From Chloroflexota bacterium (GTDB taxonomy: Bacteria > Chloroflexota > Limnocylindria > Limnocylindrales > CSP1-4): 61,271 nucleotides of DNA. Positions 7,938-48,542 of this stretch are shown piece after piece (position 1 is the first letter of the stretch; each line of letters starts with the position of its first letter). Position numbers and translations under genes: made by a program. The notes beneath the pieces are model-generated. The model worked only from the letters and a program-made list of their open reading frames with translations, did not search any database and was not told where the DNA came from. The stretch lies in NCBI GenBank assembly GCA_039931975.1, contig JBDTQW010000003.1, forward strand, positions 1 through 61,271. Direction: 5' to 3'.

Positions 7938-8588
7938 CTAGTCGAGGCGGCGGATGACTCCGATGAGCTTGCCCTGGATGCGCACGTCGTCGTAGTACAT
8001 CGGCTCGTACTCGGCGTTGGCCGGCTGGAGGCGGATGCGGCCCTGTTCCTTGAAGAAGCGCTTGAGGGTGACTGCGTTCTCCTCGACCTGGGCCACGATG
8101 ATGTCGCCGTTACGAGCGGTGGTCTGCGGTCGGATGACGACGAAGTCCCCATCGGCGATATGGGCCTCGATCATCGAATCCCCGCGGACCCGCAGCACAT
8201 AGGCATCTCCGCTGGGTGCGAAGACATCGGGCACGGCCAAGGTCTCGTCCGCTCGCTGGTAGGCCTCGATCGGGCCACCTGCAGCGATCTCACCGATGAT
8301 CGGCAGAAGATGCGCCTCGGTTGCGGCGGACTGCGGGGTGAGCTCGCTCGACAACCCCAGCTCGATCGCAGCCATGGGGGTGAGCCGGATCGCTCGAGCC
8401 TGGGCAGCGCCTCGCTCGAGGAAGCCCTCGCGCTCGAGGATCTGGAGATGATGGTGGACCGCCGAGGTCGACGCGAGACCGACCGCGCGAGCGATCTCCC
8501 GGACCGACGGTGGGACGCCGCTGGTGCGCAGGGTCGCGGCGATGTAATCGAGGATCCTGACCTTGCGGTCCGCATCGTGCTTGGTCAT
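7938..8588 (-). CDS. lexA: SOS repressor LexA
   Basis: PPSVREIARAVGLASTSAVHHHL HTH, IAAG cleavage site, VRGDSMIEAHI catalytic Ser, VTLKRF catalytic Lys; SD GGAGG before ATG 8588. Confidence 0.97.
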   Translation of the reverse strand: MTKHDADRKVRILDYIAATLRTSGVPPSVREIARAVGLASTSAVHHHLQILEREGFLERGAAQARAIRLTPMAAIELGLSSELTPQSAATEAHLLPIIGEIAAGGPIEAYQRADETLAVPDVFAPSGDAYVLRVRGDSMIEAHIADGDFVVIRPQTTARNGDIIVAQVEENAVTLKRFFKEQGRIRLQPANAEYEPMYYDDVRIQGKLIGVIRRLD

Positions 8589-8607: not shown

Positions 8608-8636
8608 ACCGTACCGAACGGACGTTCGATTGTCAA
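8608..8636 (-). promoter_or_regulatory. lexA promoter TTGACA-N17-TACGGT with SOS box CGAAC-GGAC-GTTCG (8615-8628) in the spacer
   Basis: tgtcaa 8631-8636 and accgta 8608-8613 on the + strand; GAAC-N4-GTTC palindrome between them. Confidence 0.85.
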
Positions 8637-8753
8637 GCGACGGGGAACGGGATTCCGGCGGCGACACGCACGACTGCTAGACTGCGCAGTCCCGACGCGT
8701 GACCTCGGATCGGTCGCGTCGGGGCGACCGTGCGAAGGAGGATCGCGAGCCAC

Positions 8754-9254
8754 ATGGCGCGACGGAAACGGCGGATGCCGGGCGCGAGTCTGAACCGGAT
8801 GCTGGCGATGGCCGCCCTGTTGCCGACGGCCAGTCGCTCGGCGGTCTACGCCCGGCTGGTTTGGGCGCTGATCAACGACGATCGTGTCCCGGCCTCGCGC
8901 AAGGCGCTCCTCGGTGGGGCGCTGGTCTACTTCGCCCTGCCGTTCGATATCGTCCCCGATGGGGTCCCCGTGCTCGGGGTTCTCGACGACCTGGTCGTGG
9001 TGGTCCTGGGGGTGGACCTGTTCTTCGATGGTATCCCCGCCGAGATCCTCGACGAGAAGCTGGCCGACCTCGGGATCGATCGGGCTGCCTTCGAGCACGA
9101 CCTGGGTCAGATCCGGCGGCTCACTCCTCACCCCGTTCGCCGGCTCGCCCGGCGGATCCCCCCGGCGATCGGGGTCGTCGTCCAGGCGGCCCGCGCTTCA
9201 GGCCTCGGGCCGCGGGTCCGCGGCTGGATCGACAAGGAGGGTTCGTTCGCGTGA
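8754..9254 (+). CDS. DUF1232/YkvA family membrane protein
   Basis: ALVYFALPFDIVPDGVPVLGVLDDLVVV motif; AAGGAGG upstream. Confidence 0.85.
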   Translation: MARRKRRMPGASLNRMLAMAALLPTASRSAVYARLVWALINDDRVPASRKALLGGALVYFALPFDIVPDGVPVLGVLDDLVVVVLGVDLFFDGIPAEILDEKLADLGIDRAAFEHDLGQIRRLTPHPVRRLARRIPPAIGVVVQAARASGLGPRVRGWIDKEGSFA

Positions 9255-9697
9255 AGGTCATCCTGACCGGCGATGTCGACAAGCTGGGGAAGAGCGGCGA
9301 GATGAAGGTCGTGGCGGACGGCTACGCCCGCAACTTCCTCATCCCAAAGCGGCTGGCCGTACCCGCCGAGGGCGGTGCCTACCGTGCCTGGCAGCACGAC
9401 ATCGCAAGCCGCGAGGACAAGCGGCGGCGTGAGCGCGAAGAGGCCGAGATCTACGCCACCCGGATCGCCTCGACCACCCTGACGATGGGGGTCAAGGTCG
9501 GCGACGGCGGCAAGCTCTATGGCTCGATCACGTCCAAGGACATCGCCGATGCCCTGGGCCGGCGCGGGATCGTCATCGACCGCCACAAGGTCGATCTCGA
9601 GGAACCGCTGAAGAGCCTCGGCACCTACAAGGTCGCAGTCAAGGTCTTCAGCGGGATGGCCCCGGAGGTCACGATCATCGTCGAGCCGAAGGGCTAG
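9251..9697 (+). CDS. rplI: 50S ribosomal protein L9
   Basis: MKVILTGDVDKLGKSGEMKVVADGYARNFLIPKRLA...GKLYGSITSKDIA, 148 aa; GTGA overlap with the upstream gene. Confidence 0.97.
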   Translation: MKVILTGDVDKLGKSGEMKVVADGYARNFLIPKRLAVPAEGGAYRAWQHDIASREDKRRREREEAEIYATRIASTTLTMGVKVGDGGKLYGSITSKDIADALGRRGIVIDRHKVDLEEPLKSLGTYKVAVKVFSGMAPEVTIIVEPKG

Positions 9698-11017: not shown

Positions 11018-12253
11018 ATGAGCGCGGACGCCAACCCCGGCCACGGAACCGTCGGCGGCGCATGGGCCGGGCTGGGTGCCGGGCTCGGGCCGGCGTTGCG
11101 CGACGCGATCGGGTTGTTCCTGTCCCTCCGCGTCGTTTTCGGTCTCTTCGCGATCTACCTGTGGTGGCAGGGGGGACTGGCCGGCCCGTGCCACTTCGAG
11201 CTTGCCCGCAACGGCTGGGAAACGATCCCGCCGTTGGCCGATCAGGGCGCGGCGTTCCCGCTGGTCGGTGTCTGGCAACGCTGGGACGCCTGCTGGTACA
11301 CCAAGATCGCAACCTACGGCTACGAGGCCCCGAACAGCGTCAGCTTCTTCCCGCTGTTCCCGCTCCTGACTGGGCTGGCCGGCCGGATCCTGCTCGGCGC
11401 GATGGCCCTTGGTGGGCTGGCCGTCGCCGGCGCGGCCTACGTCGCAGCGATGACCGGGCTGCGACGCCTGGTCGCGGACGACTTCGACGACGACGTGGCA
11501 CAGACGACGGTCGTGGCCATCTCGATCTTCCCGACCGCTTTCTTCTTCTTCGCCCCCTTCACGGAGTCGCTCTTCCTGGCCAGTGCGGTCTGGGCCATCC
11601 TCGCCGCCCGTCAACGTTCGTGGTCGATCGCCGCGATCGCCGGCCTCCTCGCCGCGCTGACCCGGACCCAGGGCCTGTTCCTGGTGCTGCCGCTTGGCTG
11701 GGAGGTGGCCATGGCCTGGCGCGAGGCGGGCTGGGGGATTGGGGGTCGCTGGCGTCCGCCGCCAGGTACGTTCCCGCTTCCGGTCCTCGCTGCCTTGGCC
11801 CCCGTGGTCGGCTTCGCGGCGTTCCTCGCCTTCTCGGCCGCGGTCGTGGGTGAGATCCCGATCGACACCGCGGCGGCGTGGGGTGGCACGAACTTCCATC
11901 CGCCCTGGGAGGTGATCGACGCGTCGTGGCGTTGGGCGATCGAGCACCGTGATCCGCTCCAGGCATTCAACCTGGCCATGCTGATCCTGTTCGCCCTGGT
12001 CACACTCGTCGGTTTGCGCCAGGTCCCGCTCGCCTATTCCCTGTTCGCCATCCCCCAGATCGCGCTGATCGGGACACGGATCCAGCCGATCCCGTTGACC
12101 TCGACGGGGCGCTACCTCCTGGTCGTCTTTCCGGTCTTCGTGATCCTGGCGCTTGTCCCTGGACGCTGGCTGCGGTTCGGTTGGGCGGTCGCCTCGACGA
12201 TGTTCCTGGCCCTGCTGCTCGCCGACTACCTCCAGGGCACCTTCGTGGCATGA
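11018..12253 (+). CDS. GT-C mannosyltransferase-like membrane protein (PIG-V/PMT-like)
   Basis: WQRWDACWYTKIA..GY, FFPLFPLL, FFFAPFTESLFL, STGRYLLVVFP motifs. Confidence 0.85.
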   Translation: MSADANPGHGTVGGAWAGLGAGLGPALRDAIGLFLSLRVVFGLFAIYLWWQGGLAGPCHFELARNGWETIPPLADQGAAFPLVGVWQRWDACWYTKIATYGYEAPNSVSFFPLFPLLTGLAGRILLGAMALGGLAVAGAAYVAAMTGLRRLVADDFDDDVAQTTVVAISIFPTAFFFFAPFTESLFLASAVWAILAARQRSWSIAAIAGLLAALTRTQGLFLVLPLGWEVAMAWREAGWGIGGRWRPPPGTFPLPVLAALAPVVGFAAFLAFSAAVVGEIPIDTAAAWGGTNFHPPWEVIDASWRWAIEHRDPLQAFNLAMLILFALVTLVGLRQVPLAYSLFAIPQIALIGTRIQPIPLTSTGRYLLVVFPVFVILALVPGRWLRFGWAVASTMFLALLLADYLQGTFVA

Positions 12254-13512
12254 GGACGATCCTCCACGTCGACCTCGACGCGTTCTTCGCCGCCGTCGAG
12301 CAGCGTGACCGTCCGGAGCTAAGCGGCAAGCCCGTCATCGTCGGCGGCGGCGACCCCACCGCGCGCGGTGTGGTCAGCGCGGCGTCCTACGAGGCTCGGC
12401 AGTTCGGGGTCCACTCGGCGATGCCCCTGCGCACGGCCTACGCCCTCTGCCCGAGGGGCGTGTTCCTGCCGGTCGACGGACGCAAGTACCAGTCGGTCAG
12501 TCGCGAAGTCATGACCATCCTGCGGACATTCACACCGCTGGTCGAGCCGATCTCGATCGACGAGGCGTTCCTGGACGTGACCGCATCGCGGGCATTGTTC
12601 GGCGACGGGCCGACGATCGGGGCCGCGATCAGGGCGAAGGTCGACCAGGACGTGGGCCTCACCGTCTCGGTCGGGGTCGCCACGACCAAGCTCGTGGCCA
12701 AGATCGCGTCCGACCTGCGCAAGCCCGACGCCCTGGTCGTCGTGCCGCCAGGCGAGGAGGCGGCATTCCTGGCGCCCCTCGCGATCTCCCGGCTCTGGGG
12801 CGTCGGTGAGAAGACCGCTGCGGCGCTCGCCGAGTACGGCGTGACGACGATCGGCGACCTGGCTGCTCTCTCCGATGAGCTCCTGGTTCGCCGGTTCGGC
12901 AAGCACGGGGCTTCGCTCGGGACCCGGGCTCGCGGGCTCGATCCGGATCCGGTCGGCGGCGGCGATCCGGCCAAGTCGATCGGGCACGAGCACACCTTTG
13001 ATGTCGATACCTCCGACAGCGACACCATCGAGCGAACCCTCCTGGCGATGGCCGACGGCGTGGCGGCGCGACTTCGGTCAGCGGGGCTCAAGGCCGGCAC
13101 GGTCCAGGTCAAGATCCGCGACTCTAGCTTCCGTACGATCACCCGCCAGCGGACTCTGCCCGACCCGACCGACCAGACCGAGTCGATCTGGAAGGTCGCC
13201 CTCGAGCTCGCGCGTCCGGAGATGCGCGGCCTGCGGATCCGGCTCCTGGGGGTCACCGCCAGCCACCTCGGCGAGCGTCAGCAGATGGGCATGTTCGACG
13301 AAGGCCCCGGGGCGGCCGGGGGCGATCGCCGGCGCCGGGCGACCCAGGCCGCAGACGCCGTCCGCCGGCGGTTCGGAGACGGGGCCATGACCCGGGCCCG
13401 CTTGCTGGGCGCCGGCCTGCCCGCGCCTTTCGAGCGCGATCCGATGAAAGCCGTCGAGCGACGAACCGGGATGCGCGATCCGGACGCTCCGCCCGAGGGC
13501 GAACACGACTGA
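12250..13512 (+). CDS. dinB: DNA polymerase IV (Y family)
   Basis: ILHVDLDAFFAAVEQ, SAASYEAR, SIDEAFLD, KIASDLRKPD; ATGA overlap with the upstream gene. Confidence 0.96.
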   Translation: MRTILHVDLDAFFAAVEQRDRPELSGKPVIVGGGDPTARGVVSAASYEARQFGVHSAMPLRTAYALCPRGVFLPVDGRKYQSVSREVMTILRTFTPLVEPISIDEAFLDVTASRALFGDGPTIGAAIRAKVDQDVGLTVSVGVATTKLVAKIASDLRKPDALVVVPPGEEAAFLAPLAISRLWGVGEKTAAALAEYGVTTIGDLAALSDELLVRRFGKHGASLGTRARGLDPDPVGGGDPAKSIGHEHTFDVDTSDSDTIERTLLAMADGVAARLRSAGLKAGTVQVKIRDSSFRTITRQRTLPDPTDQTESIWKVALELARPEMRGLRIRLLGVTASHLGERQQMGMFDEGPGAAGGDRRRRATQAADAVRRRFGDGAMTRARLLGAGLPAPFERDPMKAVERRTGMRDPDAPPEGEHD

Positions 13513-13567
13513 GCCCTGGTGACAGGCAACCTGTCACGAAGCCGCGCCAATCTGTGCGCAGAAGGGC

Positions 13568-13621
13568 TTGACATCGAACAGGTGTTCGGTCTAGTGTCAG
13601 GTCGAAGAGAACAGACGTTCT
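13568..13621 (+). promoter_or_regulatory. Promoter TTGACA-N18-TAGTGT with two SOS boxes (CGAAC-AGGT-GTTCG 13575-13588; AGAAC-AGAC-GTTCT 13608-13621)
   Basis: Read directly from the sequence; same GAAC-N4-GTTC motif as in the lexA promoter. Confidence 0.88.
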
Positions 13622-13678
13622 GTCGCCGACGTGCCCGGGGCGACGACCAGGTCGCTGCCGAGCGAAGGAGTCGAAGAC

Positions 13679-13948
13679 ATGGCGATGATCCGAATGGAAC
13701 CCACCCTGGTCCGGGTCCGGACCGACTGGTTCGATGGGCGTCCGCGCGAAGTGACGTGGGGCAATGAGCGCCTTCCGGTCACCGCCCTCGCCGCCGTGCG
13801 TCACGAGGACTCGGCCTACCCGATCGAAGTCGGCCCGCGGACGGTGTTCGAGGTCGTGACCCCCAAGGCTCGGCTGGCGCTGAGCTTCCAGCATCGCTCG
13901 CGACGCTGGACCATCGAGGGCCTCGACGAGGATCGCCCCGCCGCCTGA
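13679..13948 (+). CDS. 89-aa hypothetical protein, predicted LexA-regulated
   Basis: SD AAGGAG, ATG 13679; MAMIRMEPTLVRVRTDWFDGRPREVTWG...RWTIEGLDED; coding-like codon bias. Confidence 0.8.
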   Translation: MAMIRMEPTLVRVRTDWFDGRPREVTWGNERLPVTALAAVRHEDSAYPIEVGPRTVFEVVTPKARLALSFQHRSRRWTIEGLDEDRPAA

Positions 13949-33082: not shown

Positions 33083-34780
33083 CTACATCTGCTCCGGGGC
33101 GGAGATCCCGAGCAGGCCGAGCGCGTTGGCCAGGGTCGTCCGGGTCGCCGAGACCAGTGCCAGGCGGGCCGTCGACCGGGCCGGCTCGTCGGGGTCGACC
33201 ACCTTCGCGTCGCGATAGAAGGCGTGGAAGGTCGACGCCAGCTCGGTGGCATAGGCGGTGATGCCCTGGGCTTCCTCGGCGGCCGCGGCGTCCTCGACGA
33301 CCTCCGGGAGGCGGATGACCTCGCGAACGAGAGCCGCCTCCGGACCTCCGGTCAGGTCGTCCGCGGCAAGCTCGCCGGCAGGGACGAGGCCGACATCGGC
33401 CGCCTTGCGCAGGATCGACGCGATCCGGGCGTGGGCGTACTGGACGTAGTAGACCGGGTTCTCGTTGGACTGCTTCTTGGCCAGCTCGATGTCGAAGTCG
33501 ATGGCCGAGGTCGGCCCGCGGGAGGCGAAGAACCAGCGGGCGGCGTCGACGCCGATCTCCTGGAGCAGCTCGTCGAGGGTGATGAACGCGCCGGCCCGCT
33601 TGCTCATGGCCACGTCCTGGCCATCGCGCACAAAGCGGACCCAGGCCACGAGGAGCATCCGGACGGCCGACTTGTCGTAGCCCATCGCCTCGGCCGCGTT
33701 GCGCACCCGGGCAACCGTCCCGTGGTGGTCCTGGCCCCAGATGTAGATGAGCTCGTCGAAGCCGCGGCTGAACTTCTCGGTGACGTAGCCGATGTCCGAG
33801 GCGAAGTAGGTCGGCTCGCCGTTCGAGCGGATGATCACCCGGTCCTTGTCGTCGCCGAAGGCCGTCGAGCGGAACCAGAGCGCGCCGTCCTGCTCGTAAA
33901 CGTGGCCCCCGGCGCGGAGTCGCTCGATGGCTCGCGCGACCCACCCGTCGTCGTGCAGGGACCGCTCGGTCTTCCACACGTCGAAATGGACGCCGAGGTG
34001 CTCGAGCGAGGCCTCGATCCCGGCCCGCACTCGCTCCGATGCCCAGCGCCCGACGACCCCGTCCGCGTCCTTGGCTGAGGCCTCGGCCGCAGTCCACACC
34101 TCGTCCGGGAGCGCCGCGGCCAGCTCGGCTACGTAGTCGCCGTGGTAACCGTCCTCCGGGATCGGCTGGCCCCGTCGGGTGGCGATGACCGATGCGCCGA
34201 GCTTGACGACCTGGCTGCCGGAGTCGTTGAAGTAGTACTCTCGAGCGACCCGCTGACCGCCGGCCTCCAGGACCCGGCAGAGGAGGTCGCCGACGAACGC
34301 CCCACGGGCGTTGCCGATCGTCAGCGGACCGGTCGGATTGGCCGACACGAATTCGACGTTCACGTCCCGCGGCTGCGCGGCCGGGACCCGGCCCCAGGCC
34401 GCCGGCGATCCCAGGATCCCGCCGACCGATCGGGCCAGGGCCGGATCCGAGTAGCGGACGTTGATGAACCCCGGAGCGGCGACATCCACCGACCCGACGG
34501 GAGTCGTGTCAGGCGCCGCGGCCGCCTCTCGGGCGAGCTCGTCGGCGAGGATCCGGGCGATCTCGAGCGGTGCCCGGCGGTAGGGCCGGGCGAGCTTCAT
34601 CGCCAGGCTGGTGGCCGCGTCGCCGTGTTCGGGGTTCGCCGGCCGTTCGACCTTGACCGCAGGCGCGTCGACGCTCGGATCGATCGGCGGCAGCGCGCCG
34701 GATGCGACCGCGGCGGCCCATGCCCGCTCGATCGCCAGTCGCAGATGTGTGCGGAGGGTGGGATCGCTGGGGGACGGCAC
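33083..34780 (-). CDS. argS: Arginine--tRNA ligase
   Basis: VEFVSANPTGPLTIGNARGA (HIGH-like), YIWGQDHHG, MSKRAG, PVYYVQYAHARI. Confidence 0.97.
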   Translation of the reverse strand: MPSPSDPTLRTHLRLAIERAWAAAVASGALPPIDPSVDAPAVKVERPANPEHGDAATSLAMKLARPYRRAPLEIARILADELAREAAAAPDTTPVGSVDVAAPGFINVRYSDPALARSVGGILGSPAAWGRVPAAQPRDVNVEFVSANPTGPLTIGNARGAFVGDLLCRVLEAGGQRVAREYYFNDSGSQVVKLGASVIATRRGQPIPEDGYHGDYVAELAAALPDEVWTAAEASAKDADGVVGRWASERVRAGIEASLEHLGVHFDVWKTERSLHDDGWVARAIERLRAGGHVYEQDGALWFRSTAFGDDKDRVIIRSNGEPTYFASDIGYVTEKFSRGFDELIYIWGQDHHGTVARVRNAAEAMGYDKSAVRMLLVAWVRFVRDGQDVAMSKRAGAFITLDELLQEIGVDAARWFFASRGPTSAIDFDIELAKKQSNENPVYYVQYAHARIASILRKAADVGLVPAGELAADDLTGGPEAALVREVIRLPEVVEDAAAAEEAQGITAYATELASTFHAFYRDAKVVDPDEPARSTARLALVSATRTTLANALGLLGISAPEQM

Positions 34781-38725: not shown

Positions 38726-39694
38726 TCAGTCGGTCTCTGCCGCGTCGACGACCGGGTTCTCGACCGAGCCGATGCCCTCGATCTCGACCCGGATCCGGTC
38801 ACCCGACGCCAGAAAGACCGGAGGCTCGCGGAAGACGCCCACCCCGGACGGCGTCCCGGTCGTGATGATGTCGCCGGGATCGAGGGTGATCGAGCGGCTC
38901 ACGAACTCGATCAGGGCGGGGATATCGAAGAGCAGATCGTCAGTGTTGGCGGCCTGCCAGGGCACCGACGTGCCGGCATCGGCGCCCGACCCTGGAATGA
39001 GCCACGAACGGAGCTCGAGGGCCGGCGGTGACGGCACCTCGTCGGCCGTGACGAACACCGGCCCCATCGGATAGAACGTGTCCGAGCCCTTCGCCCGGAG
39101 CCACTGACCGTCGCCACGCTCGCCGGCCCGAAGCGCCTGTCGCGTGCCCTGCCAATCACGGGCCGAGACGTCGTTGCCGACCACGTAGCCGCCGACATGG
39201 GCCCACGCGTCTGCGGCGGCGACCCGCCGCGCGGTCGTCCCGATGACCACCCCGAGCTCCGCCTCGAAGTCAAGCGCGTGGCAGCCGATCGGACGGATCA
39301 CGGGCTCCCCCTCCGCAACGACCGCGTTGGCGAACTTCGAGAACAGGAGCGGACGGTCGGGTGGCGCGATCCCCTGCTCTGCGGCGTGGGCCCGATAATT
39401 CAGGCCGACGCATACGATCTTGCCGGGGTATGGGAAGGCCGGGCCCGGTCGCCGCGTGTCCAAGGGACGCGATTGGGCGCCGTGGGCGACGGCGCGATCG
39501 GCCGACTTGGCCAGCCGCCGCCACCAGGACCGGTCGGCGAAGCCGAGGACCGTGCCAAGGTCCAGGTGGGTCCAGACCCAGGCGCCGGCGAGCCCACCTT
39601 CACGCTCGAGCTGGCCGCCGGTCAGGAGGCCGCCCCCTACGACCACCGCCCAGCGATCACGGCCGGAGCGGGTGCGATACGCGTATAGCTGCAT
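38726..39694 (-). CDS. Fumarylacetoacetate hydrolase family protein
   Basis: [47 protein letters not shown]. Confidence 0.92.
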
Positions 39695-48197: not shown

Positions 48198-48542
48198 TCA
48201 GGCGTCGATCTCGACCCAGAATCGGGAGGGTGGATCGAGTCCAGGGTCGGTGCCCAGCGGCAGGCCGTCGGCGTCGGTCGGCCCGAACGGGCGTTCGCCG
48301 GCGGCGGCCTCGATCGGGAGTCGCTCCGCGACCAGTGTCGTCGGGGCGGTCCAGCAGGCCCTGATCTCGTCTCCGACCAATGGGCTGCGTCCTCGATCGA
48401 GACCGCAATACCCGCTGGCACCGAAGACAGCGTGGCGGAAGTTGGCGCAGGTCGCGCAGCTCGTGCTCGAGCGCCGGCAGACCCAGCAGCGCGCGGCCTC
48501 GGCCTGGGGTGTCCCACAATGGGGGCAGCGCCACATCGGCAT
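48198..48542 (-). CDS. Small Cys-rich (zinc-ribbon-like) hypothetical protein
   Basis: CPHC...CWVC...CATC...C...C; TACCAT lies 7 nt before the ATG. Confidence 0.75.
   Translation of the reverse strand: MPMWRCPHCGTPQAEAARCWVCRRSSTSCATCANFRHAVFGASGYCGLDRGRSPLVGDEIRACWTAPTTLVAERLPIEAAAGERPFGPTDADGLPLGTDPGLDPPSRFWVEIDA

Follow-up and report, generated by a model that had tools for sequence, protein, structure and literature searches.

Why a small unannotated gene directly downstream of dinB should carry two LexA-type boxes when dinB itself carries none, and what the product of that gene might do, are the questions raised by this locus. It lies at positions 13568-13948 of the window, by which is meant the whole 61,271-nucleotide stretch of Chloroflexota contig JBDTQW010000003.1 (assembly GCA_039931975.1) that was analyzed. 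The coding region is as follows.

13679-13948 (ATG to stop), plus strand: 89-aa stand-alone ImuB-C-like protein, predicted to be a beta-barrel (homologs, profile comparison, and model)

Sequence searching returned 624 homologs of the 89-aa protein at E ≤ 1e-3, nearly all of 86-93 aa and all unannotated, and the names attached to them point to Chloroflexota or Ca. Limnocylindrales. A profile search of 1.84 billion representatives yielded only 167 clusters, all of which were the same narrow family or fragments of it. When 401 genomes of the phylum were searched, the gene was present as a single copy in 44 of the 46 sampled genomes of the class Limnocylindria; the rest of the phylum in this set lacked it, save for one marginal match containing a stop codon. 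The gene is real and is conserved across the class Limnocylindria. Four long apparent fusions (P0189, P0194, P0123, and P0224) proved to be frameshifted or chimeric metagenome calls and not true domain fusions.

Inspection of 30 orthologous sequences revealed that Trp-77 and Arg-41 are invariant and that Arg-75 and Arg-76 are near-invariant, with Arg-54, Arg-75, and Arg-76 each shared by 90% or more of the sequences. With a pI of 8.4 the protein is basic; it contains no membrane segment and was modeled by AF2 as an all-beta fold of seven strands (pLDDT 85.6). These properties agree with the preliminary description of the product, drawn from the DNA letters of the window, as a beta-rich protein of 89 aa with conserved-looking Trp and Arg residues.

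The control region of the small gene and the lexA locus that serves for comparison contain the following elements.

13568-13573, plus strand: -35 hexamer TTGACA, read from the sequence; TTGACA or TTGACG in 30 of 30 orthologous loci
13575-13588, no strand assigned: LexA box 1, CGAACAGGTGTTCG, within the -35/-10 spacer; 23.5 bits by weight matrix
13592-13597, plus strand: -10 hexamer TAGTGT (TAnnnT), after a spacer of 18 nt; TAnnnT kept at the same distance in orthologs
13608-13621, no strand assigned: LexA box 2, AGAACAGACGTTCT, covering roughly +4 to +17 relative to the inferred transcription start; 20.3 bits by weight matrix
13664-13670, plus strand: Shine-Dalgarno sequence GAAGGAG; GAAGGAG, AAAGGAG, or GAGGAG in orthologs
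7941-8588, minus strand: lexA; Pfam LexA_DNA_bind and Peptidase_S24
8615-8628, no strand assigned: lexA operator, CGAACGGACGTTCG, in the lexA promoter, taken as the reference for the SOS box of this organism

Reading toward the coding region, TTGACA is followed by 1 base, box 1, 3 bases, TAGTGT, 10 bases, box 2, and a 57-nt leader that ends at the ATG. A strict sigma-70 scan did not call this promoter because its -10 hexamer fits TATAAT at 3 of 6 positions. LexA is established to recognize the palindrome GAAC-N4-GTTC in bacteria of the Gram-positive type, Bacillus and Mycobacterium (PMC3323433). Exact copies numbered four in the window against 0.61 expected, and 35 in the whole genome against ∼20 expected (2.65 Mb, 70% G+C); at this box density, roughly one box in a thousand would have a second within 50 nt by chance. 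A weight matrix was also built from 59 orthologous boxes and applied with a threshold of 12 bits, a site with one mismatch being one that would score ∼14 bits. Four sites in the whole window reached the threshold, namely the lexA operator, the two boxes of the small gene, and a site at 48283. Other promoter-placed boxes in the genome lie upstream of a RecA-fold imuA′-like gene, dnaE2, and uvrA, and GAAC-N4-GTTC therefore marks a typical SOS regulon.

The layout of the lexA promoter, with TTGACA, a box in the spacer, and TACGGT on the minus strand, matches that of the small gene, and a box adjoins lexA in 8 of 10 relatives, i.e. in all those whose fetched locus includes lexA. To extend the comparison, 30 orthologous loci were oriented and compared, the encoded proteins being 35-100% identical. 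Two exact boxes were present in 29 of these loci; their starts are separated by 30-35 nt, their positions measured from TTGACA are shared among the loci, and box 1 always sets in 8-10 nt past the first base of TTGAC(A/G). A single box and a very short leader are found in the one other locus. As in genes of a LexA regulon, palindromes resembling the organism's own lexA operator overlap the promoter. The small gene is found behind two predicted LexA operators of the same type as the lexA operator, which cover the spacer and the first transcribed bases. Every element of the arrangement first proposed, a TTGACA promoter with one SOS box in its spacer and a second downstream of the -10, was found in the sequence.

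The site at 48283-48298 (CCGAACGGGCGTTCGC, 17.4 bits) lies inside a minus-strand open reading frame (48198-48542) that encodes a Cys-rich protein of 114 aa and directly follows the gene of a Ser/Thr kinase of PASTA type; the site may have arisen by chance from the coding sequence (ERPF). The lexA operator is situated in a divergent region facing a gene for a DUF1232-like membrane protein (8730-9254) and rplI (9254-9697), and an effect of LexA on the transcript of these two genes is conceivable. In two relatives (L060 and L067), dinB directly follows rplI.

The polymerase gene, its upstream neighbor, and the features of the DinB C-terminal region are listed below.

11018-12253, plus strand: multi-pass membrane protein, PIG-V mannosyltransferase-like (PF04188, E 5e-4, below the curated cut-off)
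12250-13512, plus strand: dinB, Y-family polymerase of 420 aa; Pfam IMS, IMS_C, and IMS_HHH, with motifs DLD and IDE present
13279-13296, plus strand: DinB residues 344-349, QQMGMF, a beta-clamp-binding-type motif by the known consensus Q-x-x-[LM]-x-F; EQLGLF or QQLTLF in orthologs
13339-13407, plus strand: DinB residues 364-386, ATQAADAVRRRFGDGAMTRARLL, a RecA-NT-like motif by pattern fit to the motif of PMC6511836
13417-13443, plus strand: DinB residues 390-398, LPAPFERDP, a short tail after the RecA-NT motif, conserved in orthologs

The start codon of dinB overlaps the stop codon of the PIG-V-like gene (ATGA, 12250-12253), consistent with the proposal in the preliminary description that dinB is the second gene of an operon headed by a glycosyltransferase gene. 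That description also held dinB to be free of a visible SOS box. Scanning of the window with the 59-box matrix gave no site of at least 12 bits upstream of dinB, and no exact box precedes dinB in ten related loci of 12 kb, so that both data sets agree on this point. DinB looks catalytically active from its sequence motifs and is apparently transcribed constitutively.

In the ten 12-kb loci, the gene order runs from lexA through rplI and a set of variable genes to dinB, the two boxes, the small gene, an FTCD-like gene, folD, and fhs. Of the 30 orthologous loci, 26 have dinB directly upstream of the small gene, and those examined among the rest have it no more than 3 kb away. Genes have been inserted between the two in part of genus g5, where dinB is still <3 kb away, and in family f2, which has reduced genomes, the small gene is divergent from dinB yet adjacent to it, and lexA follows dinB. 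Linkage of the small gene to a DinB with clamp-binding-like and RecA-NT-like motifs is maintained. Taken with the paired boxes, this survey of gene neighborhoods, which had been put forward as a check, ties the homologs to LexA boxes as well as to dinB.

The tail that follows the RecA-NT motif varies by family, being LPAPFERDP in f1 and RRFDFGEKP in f3 and absent in f2 and f4, and it is a site at which the small protein might dock. The correlation between tail and small gene is imperfect, in that DinB of f2 has no tail though the small gene is present. In two genomes of family f4 that do not contain the small gene, DinB keeps the clamp and RecA-NT motifs and has no tail, and no LexA box is present downstream of dinB. 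The region after dinB in these two loci (L068 and L069) contains four to five TGTGGA(T/C)-type repeats resembling DnaA boxes.

Pfam gave no match to the 89-aa protein of the window even at E ≤ 10. Weak matches to PF20114 (DUF6504) were obtained with 9 of the 30 orthologs (best E 0.008), all below the gathering score of 24.2 bits, and a search of the whole genome with PF20114 gave no match at E ≤ 1. Within the phylum, some PF20114 matches come from small genes that separate an ImuB-like gene from dnaE2, and others form the C terminus of fused ImuB-like proteins with IMS and IMS_C domains. DUF6504 can therefore be equated with the ImuB-C domain, which was defined by Aravind et al. in 2013 (PMC3765255) and studied by Timinskas and Venclovas in 2019 (PMC6511836) and 2026 (PMC12926913). 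The strongest PF20114 matches (E 1e-23 to 1e-30), in other Chloroflexota families (L031-L041), are proteins of ∼115 aa that carry an inserted RRGKMARNM..RGS segment; their genes are not beside imuB, dnaE2, or dinB, and no GAAC-N4-GTTC box is found nearby.

The genome under study also contains a canonical SOS cassette with a split ImuB, located outside the window on contig C14 (34253-41169). Downstream of a box at 34253 lie the imuA′-like RecA-fold gene, imuB (IMS and IMS_C), and an overlapping gene for an ImuB-C protein of 82 aa (to 36752), after which come an unrelated minus-strand gene and then a box at 39251 with dnaE2. The 82-aa protein belongs to a conserved family with 561 homologs and is likewise unrecognized by Pfam.

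Sequence profiles were compared with hhalign. The alignment of 30 orthologs of the 89-aa protein (A1) matched an alignment of ten cassette-type sequences (A2) with a probability of 90.8% (E 1.2e-6). It also matched an alignment of 20 sequences (A4), comprising fused ImuB-like C termini that match PF20114 together with core DUF6504 members, with a probability of 92.2% (E 6e-7, 76 columns). Both matches run end to end and superimpose the invariant Trp residues. The fused ImuB-like genes used here came from Chloroflexota; a plasmid search for annotated fused ImuB gave only Streptomyces DinB2-like genes. With probabilities of 91-92%, not >99%, these comparisons identify the 89-aa protein as a homolog of ImuB-C at the profile level. 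According to the published signature, ImuB-C has a C-terminal Trp that is highly conserved, two or more conserved basic residues, and no catalytic pattern (PMC3765255); the family shows this signature in W77, R41, R54, R75, and R76. Its gene neighborhood, with a Y-family polymerase and LexA, is also that of ImuB-C.

In the AF2 model of the 82-aa paralog (pLDDT 90.2), the order and register of the strands agree with those of the 89-aa model. Foldseek against the PDB revealed no significant match for either model (best E 0.27 for the 89-aa protein), several entries being common to the two lists of weak matches, and a PDB sequence search with both profiles returned noise only. ImuB-C has been described as a beta-barrel of some 80-100 aa without close relatives in the PDB (PMC12926913). 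The 89-aa protein is most likely a free-standing and very divergent copy of ImuB-C. The preliminary description had suggested a loose likeness to DUF6504 and recommended HHpred and Foldseek searches. The likeness is upheld by profile comparison and by the weak PF20114 matches of some orthologs, and at that level only.

Two further elements were noted around the promoter.

13622-13644, plus strand: 5′-UTR hairpin GUCGCC-GACGUGCCCGG-GGCGAC with loop core GUGCC (13631-13635), directly after box 2 and part of the minimum free energy fold
13519-13537, no strand assigned: 19-nt element GTGACAGGCAACCTGTCAC, between the dinB stop codon and the promoter; GTGNCA-N7-TGNCAC, often with central CTAG

The GUGCC loop core is present in 28 of 30 orthologs, and the complementary stems that enclose it are lineage-specific (GUCGCC/GGCGAC, CGCUC/GAGCG, CAUCCGG/CCGGGUG, GUCAG/CUGAC, CACC/GGUG, and CCUGUUCG/CGAGCAGG). 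The mean contiguous stem was 5.5 bp compared with 3.3 bp in 500 shuffles of the flanks, none of which reached 5.5 bp; the sequences are related, and the count is hence not a probability. Stem conservation was assessed with a custom script, RNAalifold on a MAFFT alignment having seen only the box-2 palindrome with the stems misaligned. No Rfam family matches the leader. No conserved cis partner (GGCAC) was found for the GUGCC loop, pairing near the Shine-Dalgarno sequence being seen in two f3 loci only. That the arms vary while the center is fixed is the reverse of what is found in a protein operator, and this pattern argues for an RNA element that is read at the loop. The 19-nt element was found as GTGNCA-N7-TGNCAC in 20 of 24 family f1 loci, 49-71 nt before the -35 hexamer and also where dinB is not adjacent, and it could serve a second regulator or form a hairpin at the 3′ end of dinB. 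Three similar sequences are found in other parts of the genome, at C16:7758, C20:7224, and C26:27712.

The 89-aa protein ends in Ala-Ala, as do 24 of 30 orthologs despite varied tail length and sequence, one of the 24 having a 40-residue extension. The tag of the genome's tmRNA ends in ALAA, which resembles this C terminus, and it may reasonably be inferred that Ala-Ala is a candidate ClpXP-type degron. The tmRNA was located by Rfam at C29:18892-19267, and its tag, GNRQSTLALAA, was read by hand. It was missed by ARAGORN, which called a “permuted tmRNA” on C25 that is false and lies within an ABC-transporter gene.

Taken together, it appears moderately probable that the 89-aa protein is a lineage-specific, divergent member of the ImuB-C family that serves the adjacent Pol IV (DinB) as a small subunit or regulator inducible by DNA damage. 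This reading supports the preliminary description, which had put forward a damage-inducible partner of Pol IV analogous in role to UmuD or YolD, with an SOS-induced inhibitor as its second alternative. Under a minimal scheme, two LexA dimers approximately three helical turns apart would block both RNA polymerase binding and promoter escape, holding the gene tightly shut. DNA damage would lead to RecA-stimulated LexA cleavage and opening of the promoter, whereupon the leader and the strong Shine-Dalgarno sequence would deliver a short-lived beta-barrel protein. This protein would then join pre-existing DinB, perhaps at the tail after the RecA-NT motif, and/or RecA or DnaE2, contact with RecA probably being made via the RecA-NT motif. 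Translesion synthesis would thereby be licensed or directed, much as by ImuB-C within ImuA′-ImuB-DnaE2. The hairpin with its GUGCC loop may add post-transcriptional control and the Ala-Ala tail proteolytic control. The first two of these steps draw on the sequence and on established SOS biology, and the delivery of the protein and its joining to DinB draw on homology, linkage, and published AlphaFold-based models in which ImuB-C is a bridging subunit.

Several observations weigh against this scheme. Pfam finds no domain in the window's protein, and the orthologs all score below the gathering cut-off of DUF6504; within a single class, gene order may persist by descent even where two genes do not work together; in family f4 a similar DinB persists in the absence of the small gene, and f2 has the small gene but a DinB without the conserved tail. 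A canonical ImuB-C is already encoded beside imuB in the same genome, so that DinB is no more than a candidate target of the 89-aa paralog. A bolder form of the scheme, which we regard as unlikely though worth stating, would have Pol IV of Limnocylindria licensed by making the ImuB-C-like subunit and not the polymerase. Three gates would act on the subunit, namely a double LexA operator with cooperative binding, the GUGCC hairpin, read by a trans-acting factor that is perhaps the protein itself, and the ClpXP-type Ala-Ala degron.

The same data can be read in other ways. Because DinB appears to be constitutively expressed, the small protein might be a brake, i.e. an SOS-induced inhibitor of Pol IV or RecA in the manner of DinI or RecX that restrains DinB or hands the fork to the DnaE2 mutasome. 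LexA control of the small gene only, with dinB lacking a box, would suit such a role, as would a short-lived protein of the kind suggested by the conserved Ala-Ala and the double operators that are typical of functions needing to stay off. In published models, however, ImuB-C has a positive, structural role as the subunit that links polymerases (PMC12926913, PMC6511836), and Pfam detected no similarity to DinI or RecX in the window's protein or the 30 orthologs, which leaves an inhibitor decidedly unlikely. Were the protein instead a bridge between active DinB and DnaE2, the necessary parts would be at hand, since dnaE2, preceded by an SOS box of its own, is present in the genome in addition to imuA′-imuB-imuB-C. 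Four-part modules of this type have been catalogued (PMC12926913), and DUF6504 genes directly precede dnaE2 in other Chloroflexota. Those modules are reported from Actinobacteria only and occur without ImuA and ImuB, however, and the small gene is beside dnaE2 in none of the 30 loci; a bridge is considered very unlikely.

An SOS function unrelated to polymerases, such as that of a division inhibitor, a toxin, or a DNA-damage sensor, would reduce the adjacency of dinB to inherited gene order. Tight double repression does resemble the control of sulA-type or toxic SOS genes, the protein is basic, and ImuB-C was proposed by Aravind et al. to bind damaged DNA (PMC3765255). Against this stand the homology to ImuB-C detected by hhalign, the absence of a membrane segment and of any likeness to known division inhibitors, and a linkage to dinB that outlasts both a change of orientation in f2 and insertions in g5, and such a function is highly improbable. 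No sequence support was obtained for the division-inhibitor, DinI/RecX, or UmuD/YolD readings.

The favored role, that of a divergent ImuB-C protein serving the adjacent DinB, has published counterparts. [quoted passage not shown] One transcriptional study in Geobacter is cited in PMC6511836. The Limnocylindria protein shares with these a small all-beta structure without a PDB-like fold, a conserved C-terminal Trp with basic residues, a neighboring active-type DinB with a RecA-NT-like motif, and LexA control, here predicted from DNA sequence. It differs in being divergent enough to escape the Pfam DUF6504 model and in being confined to Limnocylindria. Its gene follows dinB and has its own double-operator promoter, whereas dinB has no box and lexA is outside the operon. 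It also coexists with a canonical imuA′-imuB-imuB-C-dnaE2 set and has an Ala-Ala tail and a leader hairpin.

Profile comparison places the 89-aa protein in the same superfamily as the ImuB C-terminal domain of ImuA′-ImuB-DnaE2, the Mycobacterium tuberculosis mutasome, which has been modeled as a beta-barrel contacting the DnaE2 PHP domain and ImuA (PMC12926913). Unlike that domain, the 89-aa protein is not fused to a Y-family domain, and its neighbor is a catalytically competent-looking DinB and not a dead ImuB. With UmuD′ of Escherichia coli Pol V and YolD/YqjX of Bacillus, the likeness is one of role only, that of a small, LexA-controlled, beta-rich Y-family subunit that also uses RecA. UmuD is controlled by proteolysis. 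At E ≤ 1, Pfam matched no Peptidase_S24 or YolD domain among the 30 orthologs, and UmuD′/YolD and ImuB-C belong to different fold classes (PMC12926913).

To include the Limnocylindria sequences extends the ImuB-C superfamily to proteins missed by current Pfam models and bears on the annotation of a widespread soil and freshwater lineage, in which the protein is now labeled “hypothetical.” To our knowledge, none of the stand-alone ImuB-C proteins has been biochemically characterized. The present family offers a clean case, with a compact protein of 89 aa, a confident model, and one obvious candidate partner in a DinB with a RecA-NT motif, and with regulation that would place the whole SOS switch on the accessory protein. 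The category of PolY with stand-alone ImuB-C has already been published on computational grounds (2013, 2019, and 2026), and the locus described here is a new, very divergent, and class-specific case of it. Particular to Limnocylindria are the double operator on the accessory gene alone, the full ImuA′-ImuB-ImuB-C-DnaE2 set alongside, the leader hairpin, and the Ala-Ala tail.
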